Source: a virus
Length of the DNA stretch: 11,755 nt
Strand: one strand, 5' to 3'
UHGV virus genome: UHGV-0258651
The position numbers and the translations under genes were made by a program. Shown here in pieces: positions 216 to 11,755 of the stretch (position 1 is its first letter; each line of letters opens with the position of its first letter). A model generated the notes under the pieces. It saw only the letters and a program-made list of their open reading frames with translations, did no database searches and was not told the origin of the DNA.

Positions 216-1454
216 TTGTATAGTACCCTGCTCATTTCGAATGACATGAGTGATTTGGAATTTCAGGGTGCCATTATGAATGTTATTTCATCATTAAAAC
301 AGCTTAACAGACAGCGAAATATTAAAACAAAAAAGATAAAGACGAAGGCCAGACTGGCATTTCTAAAAATGCGATACAGAAGGAAAACATCATTACAGCC
401 GGATAGTTATAAAACAGTGTGCATTTTCATGCACATGCAGGCCATTGGTGACGGCATCGTTACCTCAGGGTTTATTAAACAACTTCAAGAATCCGGCATG
501 GTGGTATATGTGATAGCACCTCCAAGAGTATCATTCCTCTTTACTGATATTGTTGGCGTGGATGCCTTTATTTCTTACGAGAAAAATAAATTTAACGAAC
601 TAAAAGCAAAGATAAAAAAACTGAATGTAGATCTTGTTGTTGACTTCTCAAATTTTGATAACACAGCGATAACCAGATTGCAAACACTACATTTACTTAA
701 ACCTAAACACTCTATCTGTTTTAATCATCCTGCCGTAACTATTTTTGATACAAATATAACCGATAATCGTTCCATTCACTCATCTGAAAGAATGAAAAAA
801 GTTTTATCTTTACTAAAGATAAAAAATAATGATTACGCTGCAGCGCTTAATTTTGACAACAAAATATATGAACCAGCAAATATTGTTGCAAATGAATTCA
901 GGAAGAAAAACAAAAAATTAGTTATATTTAACCCTTATGGCTCTCAGAATAGCAGAACCTTGTCTGATGAACAGATAAACAAAGTACTAGCTTACCTTAA
1001 CAACCTTAAGGGATATCACACAATAGTTTTTAACATGGGAAAACAGATTAATCACAATGGATTGGATAATGTGTCTCTATCTCCATTTTCTGATGCAGGA
1101 TGTTCATTTGCATTGGTTCGCCATGCTGATTTTGTTATAACTGTAGATACTGCTATTGTACATTTAGCCAGTGCATTAAACATTAGACAATACTGTATAT
1201 ATAATAACAGAATGCATGAAGGAAAATTCGAAAATAATATAGTGTGGGGGCCAAACAGCAAATTAGCGACTCAACTCACCACATCCGAACATCTAAGGTC
1301 TGAAGGGGGCGACGATATGCATAAATTCGACATAATGCTTTTAATTAATGCTATCAAACAAGATTTGACAAACGATATACCGAATTACCACTCGGATTTA
1401 GGTTGTAAAAATAGCTCCAGAAACCCAGAATTAGAAAGTAGCAAATCTTTATAA
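216..1454 (+). CDS. glycosyltransferase family 9 (heptosyltransferase-like) protein, AT-rich moron; true start uncertain
   Basis: 412-aa ORF from the track. It has an N-proximal KTVCIFMHMQAIGDGIVTSGFIKQL segment and a C-terminal VITVDTAIVHLASALNIRQYCIY segment, resembling the GT9 (WaaC/WaaF-type) signatures. Strongly AT-rich compared with the neighbouring tail genes. The track start at 216 is a TTG; in-frame ATGs at 246, 276 and 369 are alternative starts, and no convincing SD precedes any of them. Confidence 0.55.
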   Translation: MYSTLLISNDMSDLEFQGAIMNVISSLKQLNRQRNIKTKKIKTKARLAFLKMRYRRKTSLQPDSYKTVCIFMHMQAIGDGIVTSGFIKQLQESGMVVYVIAPPRVSFLFTDIVGVDAFISYEKNKFNELKAKIKKLNVDLVVDFSNFDNTAITRLQTLHLLKPKHSICFNHPAVTIFDTNITDNRSIHSSERMKKVLSLLKIKNNDYAAALNFDNKIYEPANIVANEFRKKNKKLVIFNPYGSQNSRTLSDEQINKVLAYLNNLKGYHTIVFNMGKQINHNGLDNVSLSPFSDAGCSFALVRHADFVITVDTAIVHLASALNIRQYCIYNNRMHEGKFENNIVWGPNSKLATQLTTSEHLRSEGGDDMHKFDIMLLINAIKQDLTNDIPNYHSDLGCKNSSRNPELESSKSL

Positions 1455-8695: not shown

Positions 8696-8886
8696 CAGGC
8701 AGAATTGCCGGAGTAACAAAAAAGCGATAGATTACGCGCGGGTGCCTTTCGGCTGATGGTCGGAGGGAATACCCGAAGGCCAGATGTGGAAAGGCCCCGG
8801 AAAACATTTCTGTTTAACCGAGGCCCTAACATATCTACCTTAAGCAAGTGATAGGTTAGCGCCTCTCCAACAAAGGAGCAAGCGCT

Positions 8887-9027
8887 ATGTCGCAAAAATC
8901 GCTTACAGCCATCACATTCTGCGTGACGGTAATCCTCATCATCTGGATGCTGCACGGTTCGCTGTGCGAAATACGGATGAGCTTCTGGGGAGCGGAGTTT
9001 GCGGCGTTCTTACAGTGTAAGCAGTAA
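8887..9027 (+). CDS. Hok/Gef-family type I toxin (small membrane peptide)
   Basis: 46-aa ORF absent from the ORF track (below its size cutoff): MSQKSLTAITFCVTVILIIWMLHGSLCEIRMSFWGAEFAAFLQCKQ. It has a single hydrophobic helix followed by SLCEIR...AAFL.CK, matching HokA-type toxins (recalled HokA: ...FTWMIRDSLCELHIKQESYELAAFLACKLKE). AGGAG SD 8 nt upstream of the ATG. Confidence 0.7.
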   Translation: MSQKSLTAITFCVTVILIIWMLHGSLCEIRMSFWGAEFAAFLQCKQ

Positions 9028-9053
9028 GGAAACCGCGACGGGGAAGGCAACTT

Positions 9054-9072
9054 CCCCGTCAATCGGTTGCCA
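9054..9072. repeat. direct repeat copy A (CCCCGTCAATCGGTTGCCA), within about 45 bp of imperfect similarity
   Basis: 19-nt perfect match to 11221-11239. Flanking sequence is also similar (GAAGG.AAC.. upstream, CGAGGTCG downstream). Copy A is preceded by a 7-bp stem with GCAA tetraloop (9040-9057). Confidence 0.9.
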
Positions 9073-9116
9073 GGCGAGGTCGAAAAGGCACCCTATTCTC
9101 GCAGTCATGGACAAAC

Positions 9117-9151
9117 AAACCCGCAGCGTAAAAACTGCGGGTTTTCTTTTT
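9117..9151. terminator. rho-independent terminator, likely bidirectional
   Basis: aaa-CCCGCAG-cgtaaaaa-CTGCGGG-ttttcttttt: a 7-bp GC-rich stem with an A-run before and a T-run after, about 90 nt downstream of the hok-like stop. Confidence 0.6.
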
Positions 9152-9175
9152 GTTACCCTCATACGCGAGGGTAAC
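9152..9175. other. perfect 9-bp-stem hairpin (GTTACCCTC-atacgc-GAGGGTAAC)
   Basis: Perfect inverted repeat seen directly, immediately after the terminator. Function unknown. Confidence 0.5.
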
Positions 9176-9389
9176 ACTCAAAGTGAGGCAATATGTAGGC
9201 AACGGTTTTATTTAACACATAAAAATCAATGCATTAAATGGATATTTACTAGCATGGGTACTGGCTTAAAATATCACAACCCTGTTTTATAACGTACTGA
9301 ATTTATTAGGTGTGACGGTTTTCCAATGGGGCTTCCGACATTACGTTCAGCTGATGCTTTTCTTATGTAACGAGAAGACATATATTGGT

Positions 9390-9421
9390 AAGCGATGAAG
9401 CGATGAAGCGATGAAGCGATG
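9390..9421. repeat. tandem octamer repeat, 4 perfect copies of AAGCGATG
   Basis: aagcgatg x4 at 9390-9397, 9398-9405, 9406-9413 and 9414-9421, lying 98-129 nt upstream of the ATPase gene start. Confidence 0.95.
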
Positions 9422-9440
9422 AAACGTCTGTTTGGTTATA

Positions 9441-9485
9441 AACTTCACACTAATAATTTCTAAATGAAATTATTAGTGTGAAGTT
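9441..9485. promoter_or_regulatory. perfect palindrome (20-bp arms, 5-bp spacer), candidate operator or 5'-UTR structure of the ATPase gene
   Basis: AACTTCACACTAATAATTTC-taaat-GAAATTATTAGTGTGAAGTT; the arms are exact reverse complements. It ends 33 nt upstream of ATG 9519. The palindrome is certain; the regulatory role is inferred. Confidence 0.5.
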
Positions 9486-9518
9486 GATGTTTATTGTGAT
9501 TATAACTAAGGAATTAAA

Positions 9519-10988
9519 ATGAAATTATCTCCAGCAGAATTGAAGTTAGAAAGGGGTAAGGTTCAAGATAATAAATTCAATCAATATGTTAAACGTATCA
9601 CATTAAAAAATGTCAGAGGGTTTGATGAGGAAATTGTGGAGTTTAAAACACCAGTTACAGCTCTTATCGGGACTAATGGTGGAGGGAAGTCGACTATATT
9701 AGGTGCTGTAGCTCTCGCTTATAAAAATGTTAAGCCAAGCAAGTTTTTCCCTAAATCATTTTATGGGGATGATTCAATGAGTGATTGGGAAATTGGATTC
9801 GAATTGACTGACAAGCCTATTTCAAAAGATAAAAATATTAACAGGACTGCAAAATTTAAACAGATGAAATGGCGCAGAGATAATTTCCCAGAGCGAAATG
9901 TTGTATATGTAGAAATACAAAGAACTGTTCCTGCAGGCGAACTAACTAAGTTTAATAAATTTTTATCTGGCGATGCTAAACAATTTGAAGAAAAAAATCT
10001 CAACCCTGAGACAATAAAATATTGCTCTGCCGTTTTAGATAAAAAGATAGAAGATTACAGATGTATAATAAATAAGCACGATCCATCTTCAAGAATGTTT
10101 GTAGGTAAGGCAATTAATGGTTCTGGTTATTCTCAGTTCCATTTTGGTGCAGGTGAAGCATCAATAATAGATACTATTGATAGAATAGAGACTGCTGCTG
10201 ATAATTCTCTTGTTTTAATTGAAGAAATTGAAAATGGACTGCATCCTGTTGCAGTGCGGTTGTTTGTTAACTATTTGACAAATGTAGCAAAGAGGAAAAA
10301 GCTGCAAATAATATTTACAACACATTCGCAGGATGCAGTAAACGAGCTAGAGCCAGAAGCTGTTTGGGCTTCTATTAACAAAAAAGTATGGAATGGCAAA
10401 CTAAGTATTGAAAGTTTACGCGCTATAACGGGGCAGAAGATAAATTCGAAAGTTATATATGTTGAAGATTCTTTTGCAAAAGAGTGGGTTGAAAATGCGA
10501 TGGATCGATATATTCCAGAACTAGCCTCAACAATAAAAGTCTACACGGCAGGTGGTTACCCCAGCGTGGTTAAAGTAAGTCAATATCATAATGAGAACCC
10601 TACTATAAATTATCCATCAATCGCATTAGTTGATGGGGATATTAAAGGTAGACCCGGAACTAAAGATCTGCCTGATAATGCAATGTTCATCGGGGATGAT
10701 TATCCTGACGCTACGGTTTTTCATTATATTGCAAATAACATAGAAGAAAATGCCTCAGTTTTGAGGCAAAGATGTTTGTTAACAAGATTTGACGCTGAAA
10801 AGATTAAATCGGAAGTTGAGAGTGTGATGCATTCTGCATGTGATCACCATGTTTATTTTACTAGATTAAGTGATAAATTAGATTTTGCCTCAGAACTATT
10901 CATTCGGGCTGGTATGATAGATTTATTTAATGAGAAAAATCCAGAATTTTGGTCCCCAATTATGGACTTCATTAAAAAAGGTCTATAG
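9519..10988 (+). CDS. ABC-type (SMC/RecF/OLD-like) ATPase fused to a Toprim-like domain; candidate OLD/PARIS-like defence nuclease
   Basis: 489-aa ORF with AAGGA SD 6 nt upstream. Walker A GTNGGGKST (aa 51-59), Walker B/D-loop LVLIEEIENGLHP, H-loop IFTTHS. The C-terminal half has VIYVEDSF and IALVDGDIKG, acidic motifs typical of a Toprim fold. AT-rich, with its own upstream palindrome and downstream terminator. Confidence 0.6.
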   Translation: MKLSPAELKLERGKVQDNKFNQYVKRITLKNVRGFDEEIVEFKTPVTALIGTNGGGKSTILGAVALAYKNVKPSKFFPKSFYGDDSMSDWEIGFELTDKPISKDKNINRTAKFKQMKWRRDNFPERNVVYVEIQRTVPAGELTKFNKFLSGDAKQFEEKNLNPETIKYCSAVLDKKIEDYRCIINKHDPSSRMFVGKAINGSGYSQFHFGAGEASIIDTIDRIETAADNSLVLIEEIENGLHPVAVRLFVNYLTNVAKRKKLQIIFTTHSQDAVNELEPEAVWASINKKVWNGKLSIESLRAITGQKINSKVIYVEDSFAKEWVENAMDRYIPELASTIKVYTAGGYPSVVKVSQYHNENPTINYPSIALVDGDIKGRPGTKDLPDNAMFIGDDYPDATVFHYIANNIEENASVLRQRCLLTRFDAEKIKSEVESVMHSACDHHVYFTRLSDKLDFASELFIRAGMIDLFNEKNPEFWSPIMDFIKKGL

Positions 10989-11053
10989 TAATAATGCAAA
11001 AATATAATATTTAGTTTGCGATTTATATTTTTCATAATGAATTGTTGAGAAAA

Positions 11054-11090
11054 TAAGAGAGCATCGAAAATTGAGGCTCTCTTATTTTTA
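11054..11090 (+). terminator. rho-independent terminator of the ATPase gene
   Basis: TAAGAGAGC-atcgaaaattgag-GCTCTCTTA followed by TTTTTA: a 9-bp stem plus T-run, 66 nt after the stop at 10988. Confidence 0.6.
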
Positions 11091-11148
11091 TGAGATATCT
11101 CTAATGTATTAATCGTTTTATTTTGGCGCTACCACCACTGATGCTAAC

Positions 11149-11535
11149 TTGTCGATCAGACATTCGCACTATTCAATATCTTTTAGGCTCCGCAATGAAA
11201 ACGCCCCCGAAGGAACAATCCCCCGTCAATCGGTTGCCAAAGGCCATTTAGGTAAATCGCCTTCGAGGTCGTTCGATGGCTGCATGACGTTCCCGGTTAT
11301 CCCGTCAAAGAAAATGCACTCGACCGGAAAACCAGAAGAACTAATGGCGGAGTTGCTCAGGACTGCGAATAGTGGCGGAACAGTCCTTGATCCTTTTATG
11401 GGGCCAGGGACAACGGGTGTGGCTGCACTGAAAGCAGGGCGAAAATTTATTGGTATAGAAACCAGTGATCATTATTTTGAGGTAGCAGCGCAGCGGCTTC
11501 GGGGGACTATTACCACAACCATTTCAGCTACATAA
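11149..11535 (+). pseudogene. DNA methyltransferase (beta-class N6A/N4C type) 3' fragment, 5'-truncated
   Basis: The C-terminal roughly 75 aa of the 128-aa ORF read HSTGKPEELMAELLRTANSGGTVLDPFMGPGTTGVAALKAGRKFIGIETSDHYFEVAAQRL, the conserved end (H-x-T-x-KP ... DPF.G.GTT, motif I) of PF01555-type methylases. The catalytic DPPY motif and the preceding roughly 180 aa expected upstream are absent; the upstream sequence is AT-rich and non-coding. Confidence 0.5.
11221..11239. repeat. direct repeat copy B (CCCCGTCAATCGGTTGCCA)
   Basis: 19-nt perfect match to 9054-9072. It sits at the 5' junction of the methyltransferase remnant. Confidence 0.9.
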
Positions 11536-11540
11536 GACAA

Positions 11541-11562
11541 AGCCCGCATTTTTTTGCGGGCT
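11541..11562. other. stem-loop (AGCCCGCA-tttttt-TGCGGGCT) just after the methyltransferase-fragment stop; weak terminator candidate
   Basis: 8-bp stem seen directly. The downstream tract is only moderately T-rich on either strand. Confidence 0.35.
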
Positions 11563-11635
11563 TGTCTATCATTACTGATGTGGACAGTTTGTGGATGTTT
11601 ATAAGAAATAAGCTAATAGAAACAATTTGTTAGCT

Positions 11636-11663
11636 TTACAAAAAACGCGCCCGAAGGCGCGTT
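11636..11663 (-). terminator. rho-independent terminator for the convergent minus-strand gene
   Basis: Minus strand reads AACGCGCC-ttcg-GGCGCGTT followed by TTTTTTGT (plus-strand A-run 11637-11645), starting 24 nt after the minus-strand stop codon at 11689..11687. Confidence 0.6.
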
Positions 11664-11686
11664 GGCGATACACTCAATATAAAGGA

Positions 11687-11755
11687 CTACTCTTCTTCAA
11701 CTTCTTCGACGAAGTTGGCGTCTTTCACCGATGTTGCGGCACGACGTGCTTCGCC
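11687..11755 (-). CDS. 3' end of an unidentified minus-strand gene (probably flanking chromosomal gene); 5' part outside window
   Basis: Minus-strand frame is open from the window edge and translates to ...GEARRAATSVKDANFVEEVEEE, with stop TAG at 11689..11687 and a terminator directly downstream. I do not recognise the family. Confidence 0.45.
   Translation of the reverse strand, partial: GEARRAATSVKDANFVEEVEEE

Follow-up and report, generated by a model that had tools for sequence, protein, structure and literature searches.

A direct repeat on either side of a predicted prophage defence gene is a recombination scar, not a recombination site

The 19-bp sequence that occurs on both sides of a predicted defence ATPase gene in the viral genome UHGV-0258651 (the whole stretch analysed, 11,755 nucleotides, is referred to as the window) is a recombination scar and not a recombination site. 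It is a product of ordinary prophage mosaicism and very probably plays no role in moving the ATPase cassette. Most probably, two different hok loci each contributed the same short segment, the downstream copy having been left by a second P2-like right end that was otherwise mostly deleted. The initial annotation had considered two origins for the repeat, namely that the cassette was inserted or exchanged at a short conserved site, or that the 3' regions of two paralogous small genes were brought together. The latter proved essentially right, the downstream copy being a fragment of a second hok 3'UTR. The former is not borne out by the breakpoints of relatives, the limits of the cassette, strains rl0044 and EC361, the Salmonella version of the cassette or the absence of an empty junction.

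The window covers the right end of a P2-like prophage of E. coli that lies between pheL and raiA and is integrated in the raiA terminator. Its 26-bp attachment core, CAAAAAACGCGCCCGAAGG(C/T)GCGTTG, is repeated at attL, where it adjoins pheL and the integrase, and at attR, and is present once in the empty chromosomal site of strain 3A. On the plus strand, the segment 11536-11664 comprises the terminator of a methyltransferase (MTase) gene (11536-11566), the working P arm with its TGTGGA repeats and, at 11639-11664, the raiA terminator as attR core (CAAAAAACGCGCCCGAAGGCGCGTTG). As the initial annotation stated, no recombinase is present in the window. The prophage encodes a single recombinase, the integrase at its opposite end, outside the window; the core used by this enzyme is the raiA terminator and not the 19-mer.

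The repeat itself is genuine. The exact 19-mer CCCCGTCAATCGGTTGCCA occurs twice, both times on the plus strand, at 9054-9072 (copy A) and 11221-11239 (copy B), and is far above chance, with no match in 200 dinucleotide shuffles even when three mismatches were allowed. The described similarity upstream of the 19-mer (GAAGG.AAC) is likewise real, and the immediate upstream flanks diverge at once, reading CAACTT at copy A vs ACAATC at copy B. Because the flanks differ immediately, copy B was not duplicated from copy A. Downstream, the supposed continuation of the similarity does not hold up: CGAGGTCG is not colinear, starting 3 nt past copy A and 25 nt past copy B, where it sits within MTase-homologous sequence that reads CGGGACCG in strain M11. 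This downstream match is a coincidence.

Copy A belongs to the ordinary 3' region of the hok mRNA, within the working hok/sok-type toxin locus of the resident prophage (8740-9093, plus strand). The hok ORF (8887-9027) encodes a 46-aa Hok/Gef protein (Pfam HOK_GEF, E 3.7e-07, 30.1 bits at a cut-off of 22), and the Rfam sok model matches 8740-8897 with an E value of 2.3e-08 and a score of 47.9 bits that stays under the gathering score of 59. In the minimum free energy fold, 8740-8754 is paired with 9074-9093, reproducing the fold-back of the 5' tac (8740-8752) onto the 3' fbi (9081-9093), and the GGCACCC element is kept in relatives. In agreement with its earlier placement in the hok 3' region, copy A begins 27 nt past the hok stop codon (stop at 9027). 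With its first 7 nt, copy A supplies the 3' arm of the hairpin in the hok 3'UTR (9037-9060), the stem of which differs between alleles in a compensatory manner (GGGGAAG/CTTCCCC in the window vs GGGGGA/TCCCCC in M11). Rfam matches to manA-II and BSnc120 were disregarded, as their scores are far under the gathering thresholds.

Among relatives in IMG/VR, the 19-mer is present in a single copy in 68/68 contigs, 27-29 nt past the hok stop codon and inside the hok 3'UTR, which identifies it as a component of hok; M11, EcPF40 and FRIK944 also have one copy each. The homology of the 68 relatives to the window runs through the 19-mer and breaks at 9093-9104 or, in about 45 of them, at 9145-9162, but never at 9054-9072, so that cargo breakpoints lie 20-90 nt downstream of the 19-mer. 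In none of these relatives does the 19-mer form the junction between backbone and alternative cargo. An empty-site allele, in which one copy joins the outer flanks, had also been envisaged; of 5426 E. coli genomes, none covered a synthetic version of this junction to 80% or more. The two copies in strains rl0044 and EC361 enclose TM2, com and a full MTase gene as well. Many alternative genes occupy the hok-attR interval, a genuine cargo hotspot.

The listed content between the two copies (terminator, hairpin, octamer repeats, palindrome, ATPase gene and its terminator) stands, but was incomplete. Also present between the copies are a fossil attachment arm with its core (9177-9263), a stretch of ~125 nt from the upstream region of the cassette that is shared with Salmonella, and the 90-bp remnant of a gene (11107-11196). 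Following hok, a terminator (9117-9151) and a GTTACCCTCA..TGAGGGTAAC hairpin (9152-9175) constitute a common linker (9117-9175, plus strand), beyond which cargo modules differ. The fossil arm that comes next, also on the plus strand, is a P arm with an 11-bp core, CATGGGTACTG (9253-9263), belonging to a different integrase type, here called X. The same arm sequence is the working attR of strain EcPF40, inside prpC. Positions 9115-9263 are 96% identical to EcPF40 (L004 3986-4134) over 149 nt, the homology stopping exactly at the end of the core, and the 11-mer is all that attL and attR of EcPF40 have in common. Sequence from 9264 onward was rejected as the P' arm of a type-X site, since the EcPF40 attL continues TCGCACCCC.. 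instead. The type-X arm was detected in 18 of 5426 E. coli genomes, 17 of them with the cassette, and in one IMG/VR contig. All 17 E. coli cassette carriers have the module in common from the fossil arm through raiA, and their left contexts differ.

The cassette opens with an upstream region (9264-9518, plus strand) consisting of sequence shared with Salmonella (about 9266-9395; Blast match to locus L027), a tract of AAGCGATG octamers (9390-9421) and a palindrome with 23-nt arms (9438-9488). The octamer tract varies from 4 to 16 copies among strains and lies upstream of a predicted defence gene whose family was reported to be toxic on induction; it may deserve attention. The gene itself (9519-10988, plus strand) encodes a 489-aa ABC-ATPase-TOPRIM protein that matches the PADLOC profile PDLC04149 (HEC-04) over its full length (E 1.8e-203, residues 2-488 vs profile positions 5-488 of 494), in addition to Pfam AAA_15 and AAA_21, and contains a Walker A motif (GTNGGGKST, 51-59), YVED (314-317) and DGD (372-374). 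Judged by profile and motifs, it is predicted to be a HEC-04/IbfA-type defence gene. It is followed by a terminator hairpin (11050-11088, plus strand; inverted repeat I3).

On the minus strand, a 128-aa gene (phrog_14142) survives as a pseudogene remnant at 11107-11196, comprising its last ~27 codons and containing an in-frame stop. The remnant is 77.8% identical to L019 1063-1152 over 90 nt, and its translation reads LRSLKDIE*CECLIDKLASVVVAPK vs LRSLKDVEACERLIDKLASVVVAPK in Salmonella. There, the 128-aa gene is intact and runs convergently to the ATPase gene, and the pair adjoins raiA without copy B and without the MTase remnant. Homology to the Salmonella cassette ends at ~9264 and 11196, at distances of 190 nt and 25 nt from the repeats. 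The exact ATPase protein is located at raiA in E. coli in 10/10 of the matches listed from public assemblies, and a variant has the same context; the 90% cluster contains E. coli and Salmonella only. Another P2-like phage has a 78% identical homologue in its classical gpA-portal hotspot. Peptide-pattern searches of species-representative genomes confirmed no ATPase elsewhere, and GenBank phages yielded only a 36%-identical Burkholderia phage protein and no match to the 128-aa protein.

Copy B is an isolated 28-nt fragment of a hok 3'UTR (11212-11239, plus strand) that includes the 19-mer and corresponds to the hairpin and spacer just upstream of fbi in hok loci. It is identical at 27/28 positions to the hok 3'UTR allele of the IMG/VR prophages L029, L044 and L088 and has a 23-nt exact match to M11. 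The opposite-strand remnant of the 128-aa gene lies upstream of it, the interior of the MTase gene downstream, and Rfam gave no match at this position. Copy B does not represent a second functional hok locus, as it has no Hok-like ORF and no adjacent fbi or terminator; a 42-aa ORF (11123-11251) was rejected as a second Hok because its translation is not Hok-like. The exact allele, with the loop ACAA, was found in no other sequence of IMG/VR (AACAATCCCCCGTCAATCGGTTGCC, 0 matches) or of 185,579 species genomes (GGAACAATCCCCCGTCAATC, 0 matches), and searching 11095-11245 in E. coli genomes at distant sensitivity returned only the 17 cassette carriers.

The end of copy B coincides exactly with the start of homology to the full MTase gene of M11 (11239-11498 vs L001 5216-5475, 90.8% identity), the position at which the initial annotation saw the MTase homology being lost. 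What remains (11239-11535, plus strand) is the C-terminal part of an N6/N4 DNA methyltransferase gene that is missing the com regulator and about the first 170 codons. Only profile positions 160-220 of Pfam N6_N4_Mtase are covered, and RefSeq annotates a pseudogene without N-terminus. Positions 11238-11755, comprising the MTase 3' part, terminator, P arm, attR and raiA, are 95-97% identical over 518 nt to L029, L044 and L088, where this region follows an intact hok-TM2-com. Copy B, the MTase remnant, the terminator and the attR arm are thus colinear with the intact right end, hok-TM2-com-MTase-attR, of other raiA prophages. At the upstream edge of copy B, the 16-mer AAAACGCCCCCGAAGG (11198-11213, plus strand) matches the prophage att core, that is, the raiA terminator, at 15/16 positions and could represent either the relic of such a core or one half of a generic terminator. 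It cannot be taken as a certain fossil core, since unrelated phages carry this 18-mer as half of a generic terminator, and 11/12 unrelated IMG/VR matches to TGAAAACGCCCCCGAAGG run on as a complete terminator hairpin. It also aligns weakly (12/22 positions) with the start of the hok 3'UTR; being both a common terminator half and weakly hok-like, the 16-mer is ambiguous in origin.

We suggest that the second right end was of the hok-TM2-com-methyltransferase-terminator-attR type, of which copy B, the last ~300 nt of the MTase gene, the terminator and the attR arm would have survived. Copy B is cut at both sides by non-homologous junctions with 1-2 nt microhomology. The most economical starting point would be two raiA-integrating prophages in tandem, the left one with att-proximal cargo consisting of the HEC-04 ATPase gene and the 128-aa gene. 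One deletion may have begun in the 128-aa gene and ended within the middle att core, a second may have removed the body of the right-hand prophage between this core and that prophage's hok 3'UTR, and a third may have extended from the hok 3'UTR into the MTase gene; a single unequal exchange between two related phage genomes would be an equivalent route. We infer the tandem stage as well as the order and mechanism of the deletions. The arrangement seen in the window, 128-aa remnant, core-like 16-mer, hok UTR scrap, MTase remnant, P arm, core and raiA, is colinear with a tandem array. The repeats would bracket the ATPase gene only because every phage of this family has hok near its right end and the cassette was at the extreme right end of the left-hand prophage. 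Against this history, three deletions leaving islands of 16 and 28 nt are an unusual pattern, the 16-mer that speaks for the tandem order is ambiguous in origin, the exact copy B allele did not turn up in IMG/VR or the species genomes, and the abutment of the cassette on the type-X fossil core at 9263/9264 is left unexplained. As to intermediates, neither a tandem array nor an E. coli copy with an intact 128-aa gene was found.

If the 19-45-bp element were a short conserved recombination site, resembling attC or att or anchoring a hotspot, its copies should mark the cassette boundaries. An exact 19-mer at both sides of a low-GC, horizontally acquired, predicted defence gene, within a true cargo hotspot, fits this idea, yet the breakpoints of the 68 relatives avoid the 19-mer, each relative has a single copy, and the cassette limits (9264 and 11196) lie elsewhere. 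Moreover, the copies in rl0044 and EC361 enclose TM2, com and the full MTase too, the Salmonella cassette has no copy B, the empty junction is missing from all 5426 E. coli genomes, and copy B has non-hok sequence at both sides, which is unexpected from a crossover inside the repeat. This explanation is already largely refuted and we consider it highly improbable. We assign negligible probability to a chance match or to a dispersed REP-type element found genome-wide: nothing beyond the short length of the repeat speaks for this, whereas the shuffles gave no match and the sequence occupies one fixed hok-locus position in 68/68 viral contigs and all fetched E. coli loci.

The remaining alternatives concern the way in which the fragments came together. 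Without a tandem stage, one unequal exchange could have combined an incoming phage or DNA (..ogr-hok-fossil arm X-ATPase-128-aa gene) with a resident raiA prophage, the left crossover being homologous in P2 late genes and the right one illegitimate in the resident hok 3'UTR, followed by a separate deletion into the MTase gene. Such an exchange would rest on the same fragment identities, and the varied left contexts joined to an invariant right module indicate that homologous exchange does occur leftward. However, the core-like 16-mer, in its tandem-colinear position between the 128-aa remnant and copy B, is left unaccounted for, and the donor configuration was not found in the species-representative genomes or GenBank phages searched; we regard this route as unlikely. 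Still more doubtful is a graft, in which a type-X phage may have recombined via its own att core at a secondary site just upstream of the HEC-04 cassette, leaving the fossil attR at 9177-9263, before the composite was grafted onto a raiA-type att/int module with the hairpin-rich hok 3'UTR as preferred illegitimate breakpoint. This would be a general route for att-proximal defence cargo and for switching integration site; if true, P2-like phages would have a third defence hotspot in the ogr/hok-attR interval, one fed by integrases, and such grafts would recurrently be marked by hok 3'UTR scraps. Copy B might also be local filler from one complex repair, in which a deletion joined the 128-aa gene to the MTase gene by serial template switching, copying ~16 nt of att core and ~28 nt of hok 3'UTR. 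The islands at 11198-11213 and 11212-11239 do have near-identical templates less than 2.2 kb away in the same prophage and overlap by the 2-nt microhomology GG. Nevertheless, copy B is the L029/L005-type hok allele (CAATC before the 19-mer), not the copy A allele (CAACTT), the adjacent 518 nt stem from the same L029-type lineage, so that inheritance suffices without copying, and the 16-mer may be a generic terminator half. We deem filler synthesis very unlikely.

With the tandem history as the preferred reading, the main value of the analysis is corrective: neither a mobile 'ATPase cassette' nor a new recombination site should be defined on the basis of this repeat. The anatomy is useful in its own right, placing predicted HEC-04/IbfA-type att-proximal cargo between the fossil site of another integrase and the stump of a second prophage end. 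The locus offers a clean worked example of right-end rebuilding by integration, unequal exchange and deletion, in an ogr/hok-attR interval that carries very diverse cargo.

Compared with known systems, the copy A locus resembles hok/sok type I toxin-antitoxin loci of plasmid R1 and its chromosomal and prophage homologues in its Hok/Gef ORF, putative sok-like antisense region and tac-fbi pairing. Copy B differs, being a 28-nt scrap without ORF, promoter, fbi or terminator that cannot work as a hok locus. Target-site duplications and integron attC sites likewise place direct repeats either side of a horizontally acquired gene, but here the repeats lie off the element ends, their flanks are non-identical, no cargo variation is tied to the repeat, and the window has neither a transposase nor an integron integrase, nor terminal inverted repeats that match. 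For the HEC-04/IbfA family, protection against T4 and T5 was reported, and mutants of the Walker A and metal sites (K62, E319, D375 and D377) lose defence (10.1101/2024.01.29.577857; PMC12111858). The predicted defence allele in the window is alike in its full-length profile match, Walker A lysine, TOPRIM glutamate and DxD, with K57, E316 and D372/D374 corresponding to these residues by offset rather than by residue-by-residue alignment; the hypervariable octamer tract and long palindrome in its promoter region go unmentioned in the parts of those two papers cited here. P2-like defence hotspots similarly accommodate single-gene defence systems as accessory cargo, the parts of the two studies drawn on here describing a gpA-gpQ hotspot plus minor att-proximal ones (Rousset et al. 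2022, PMC9122126; NAR 2026, PMC13586616). In the window, the cargo lies between ogr/hok and attR; the hotspots listed in the corresponding part of PMC13586616 include an integrase-att interval and name neither ogr nor hok. Finally, tandem or decayed prophages with fossil att sites, as in P2 and lambda polylysogeny or cryptic remnants, share with this locus two successive right-end modules before one attB, a core at attL and attR, a second, unused arm and core inside the prophage, and truncated junction genes. Here, the second prophage has shrunk to ~450 bp, and the survivor appears to use the remnant's arm and attR.

The 19-mer CCCCGTCAATCGGTTGCCA occurs twice on the plus strand, at 9054-9072 (copy A) and 11221-11239 (copy B), as the initial annotation had located it. 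A repeat search of the window returned it as the sole long two-copy direct repeat of its region, and 200 dinucleotide-preserving shuffles yielded no match, even with up to three mismatches permitted. Of the roughly 45 bp of similarity described around the core, the upstream part is real, but the downstream part, CGAGGTCG, is not: it lies 3 nt past copy A versus 25 nt past copy B, where it falls within methyltransferase-homologous sequence and strain M11 has CGGGACCG. Copy A starts 27 nt beyond the stop codon of a 46-aa Hok/Gef ORF (8887-9027, Pfam E 3.7e-07), confirming its placement in the 3' region of a hok-like gene. In the MFE fold, the 5' end of the hok mRNA (GGGTGCCTTTCGG, 8740) is paired with the 3' element GAAAAGGCACCC (9081-9093), a predicted pairing that corresponds to the tac/fbi arrangement of hok/sok, and the first seven nucleotides of copy A supply the 3' arm of a hairpin in the 3'UTR (9037-9060), whose stem shows compensatory differences among alleles. 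The Rfam sok model scored 47.9 bits over 8740-8897, short of its gathering score of 59. In IMG/VR, 68 contigs match the 19-mer exactly, with one copy in each, located 27-29 nt after the Hok ORF in all 67 that contain enough upstream sequence; M11, the EcPF40 prophage and O157 FRIK944 likewise have a single copy. Together with the change of about 4 of the 19 positions in distant hok loci (an O157 lambdoid prophage, plasmid pUMNK88_Hly), this fixed location indicates that the 19-mer is a component of hok, yet not an unusually conserved one. Intact hok loci do stand in tandem in this phage family: in one IMG/VR relative (L035), the usual hok is closely preceded by a second, divergent Hok ORF (49% identical), some 442-576 nt upstream of the 19-mer.

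The window encodes a tape-measure protein, sheath, gpD, Ogr and Hok, after which comes the 3' end of raiA. The same arrangement forms the right end of a P2-like prophage between pheL and raiA in Escherichia coli ST69 (NZ_CP102488), where the integrase adjoins pheL. The att core, which is the raiA terminator, CAAAAAACGCGCCCGAAGG(C/T)GCGTTG, is found at attL, at attR (11639-11664) and, in strain 3A, once at the unoccupied site. Therefore, the ATPase gene (489 aa, 9519-10988, plus strand), copy B and the methyltransferase remnant (11239-11535) all lie within the present prophage. At the opposite end of the window, near the tail-fibre end of the prophage, positions 1-124 match the Rfam sRNA IS009 strongly (133.8 bits versus a gathering score of 117), the match being cut by the window start. 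A 412-aa ORF with a TTG start (216-1454, plus strand) follows upstream of the tail gene block and shows a weak match to glycosyltransferase family 9 (heptosyltransferase; E 3.6e-06); it is a candidate lysogenic-conversion or cargo gene, and its place is taken in the ST69 relative by a tail-fibre invertase segment.

If the repeat marked the boundaries of alternative cargo, as had been proposed for checking, relatives should diverge from the window there. Instead, the homology of the 68 relatives continues uninterrupted across the 19-mer, with no breakpoint at 9054-9072 in any of them. It ends at 9093-9104, the end of the hok mRNA, in 21 relatives, at 9125-9126 in two and at 9145-9162, past the terminator, in 42, and reaches beyond 9162 in the other three. 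What follows hok varies widely: nothing (attR at serS, ihfA, pgsA or flk), TM2, com-methyltransferase, TM2-com-methyltransferase, a 128-aa gene or one of several other small genes. The hok-attR interval is thus a genuine cargo hotspot, but the 19-mer is not its hinge. The gpD-ogr interval is also variable in this phage family, encoding a PIN-domain protein in M11 (L001 2581-3651) and differing hypothetical proteins in EcPF40 (L004 1937-2761) and O157 FRIK944 (L098 1470-2075); it is empty in the window.

With the Salmonella copy as reference, cassette homology extends from about 9266 to 11196. The E. coli cassette is present in 17 of 5426 genomes, and in every one copy B, the methyltransferase remnant and raiA come after it. 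In Salmonella, the ATPase gene (92-94% identical) is likewise located next to raiA, in the right end of a prophage whose tail module differs; the order is ATPase gene, intact convergent 128-aa gene (phrog_14142), terminator, attachment arm and raiA core, and both copy B and the methyltransferase remnant are absent. Of the 128-aa gene, the window retains about 27 codons from the 3' end, which include an in-frame stop (11107-11196, minus strand). This family, which has no Pfam match, recurs as att-proximal cargo (Salmonella example, L019 1062-1448) and is convergent with hok in two IMG/VR P2-like contigs (L079, L062; 62-65% identical).

To the left of the cassette, the attR region of a prophage integrated in prpC in strain EcPF40 matches window 9115-9263 at 96% identity; the integrase type of that prophage, here called X, differs from the raiA-integrating one. 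The match stops exactly at CATGGGTACTG, the sole sequence common to the attL and attR of that prophage. Past it, the window continues with the cassette, and with neither prpC nor the EcPF40 phage P' arm. The arm and its 11-bp core (9177-9263), a working attR within prpC in EcPF40, thus appear in the window as a fossil attR-type junction of integrase type X that abuts the cassette. The type-X arm is rare, occurring in 18 of 5426 E. coli genomes (17 with the cassette) and one IMG/VR contig. We infer that a type-X phage may once have recombined via its core beside the cassette.

The right junction is composed of four fragments: the 128-aa gene remnant (to 11196), AAAACGCCCCCGAAGG (11198-11213), a 28-nt scrap of hok 3'UTR (11212-11239) and the methyltransferase interior (from 11239). 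The end of copy B is the exact start of homology to the complete DNA methyltransferase of M11 (11239-11498 versus L001 5216-5475, 90.8%), bearing out its assignment to the edge of the methyltransferase homology. Three raiA-integrated IMG/VR prophages (L029, L044, L088), whose right end reads hok-TM2-com-methyltransferase-terminator-arm-attR, are 95-97% identical to window 11238-11755 over 518 nt, and their hok 3'UTR matches 11212-11239 at 27 of 28 positions. The immediate upstream flank, ACAATC at copy B versus CAACTT at copy A, argues that copy B was inherited from this second, L029-type lineage and not copied from copy A.

These junctions bear on the two origins initially considered for the repeats. 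Insertion or exchange of the cassette by recombination at a short conserved site would account for a perfect repeat on either side of it, but is not supported: the breakpoints lie elsewhere and the Salmonella cassette lacks copy B. Moreover, none of the 5426 complete E. coli genomes covered 80% or more of a synthetic junction modelling deletion between the copies (hok..19-mer joined to methyltransferase'), which likewise leaves the expected empty-site, single-copy allele without an example among them. The 19-mers are ~3.65-3.7 kb apart in rl0044, EC361 and others, where copy A is separated from the fossil arm by TM2, com and a complete methyltransferase 90% identical to the remnant, versus ~2.17-2.26 kb in the remaining carriers. 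Carriers share a constant module that extends from the fossil arm to raiA inclusive, and exchange is confined to what lies left of it, which again separates the repeats from the cassette. The other proposal, that two paralogous 3' regions were brought together, proved correct in substance, copy B being a fragment of a second hok 3'UTR.

Copy B is probably a scar, left by either decay of a prophage or unequal exchange. The order of the four right-junction fragments is that of two raiA prophages in tandem after loss of nearly all of the right-hand one, and the joins between the fragments overlap by only 1-2 nt and are thus illegitimate. The core-like 16-mer at 11198-11213, which matches the att core at 15 of 16 positions, fits the tandem order; however, the same 18-mer is a generic terminator half in unrelated phages, and the 16-mer can also be aligned, if weakly, to the beginning of the hok UTR, so that its origin is uncertain. 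In the specific path, two tandem raiA prophages would have undergone three deletions, a course of events that we advance tentatively, with at best an even chance of being right. No intermediates of this path were found among E. coli carriers or public assemblies with the ATPase protein, nor was the exact copy B allele found elsewhere in IMG/VR or 185,579 species genomes.

The region preceding the ATPase gene has several features of its own. An octamer tract, AAGCGATG (9390-9421), lies ~100 nt upstream of the start codon; its copy number ranges from 4 to 16 among otherwise near-identical E. coli carriers, with 4 in the window, and no such tract is present in Salmonella. The tract may tune the defence gene or make it phase-variable. 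Directly upstream of the ribosome-binding region, a palindrome (9438-9488; 23-nt arms, 96% complementary, 5-nt loop) is probably an operator, and Salmonella has another palindrome in the equivalent position (L027, ~2100-2140). There, the gene is preceded by a 1.1-kb non-coding region, of which only the last ~125 nt are kept in E. coli, and L027 1650-2010 is dense in short, iteron-like CATCACA, GTGACGG and GTGATGG repeats. Many Salmonella and E. coli draft assemblies stop within the 5' part of the ATPase gene (window ~9519-9700) and its protein cluster is rich in partial entries (306-476 aa), suggesting a systematic assembly or coverage problem at the AT-rich repeat/palindrome region.

Along its entire length, the 489-aa protein aligns with the PADLOC profile HEC-04 (E 1.8e-203); it has the Walker A residue K57 and the TOPRIM residues E316, D372 and D374. 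HEC-04 combines an ABC ATPase with TOPRIM and reportedly protects against T4 and T5 in a manner requiring these Walker A and TOPRIM residues; IbfA of Salmonella plasmids is described as its homologue (bioRxiv 10.1101/2024.01.29.577857; PMC12111858). The HEC-04/IbfA family was also reported to be toxic upon induction. A 78%-identical homologue occupies the classical gpA-portal hotspot of another P2-like phage. By its sequence, the ATPase gene is assigned to this described defence family, and the observations made here all fall within known prophage biology.
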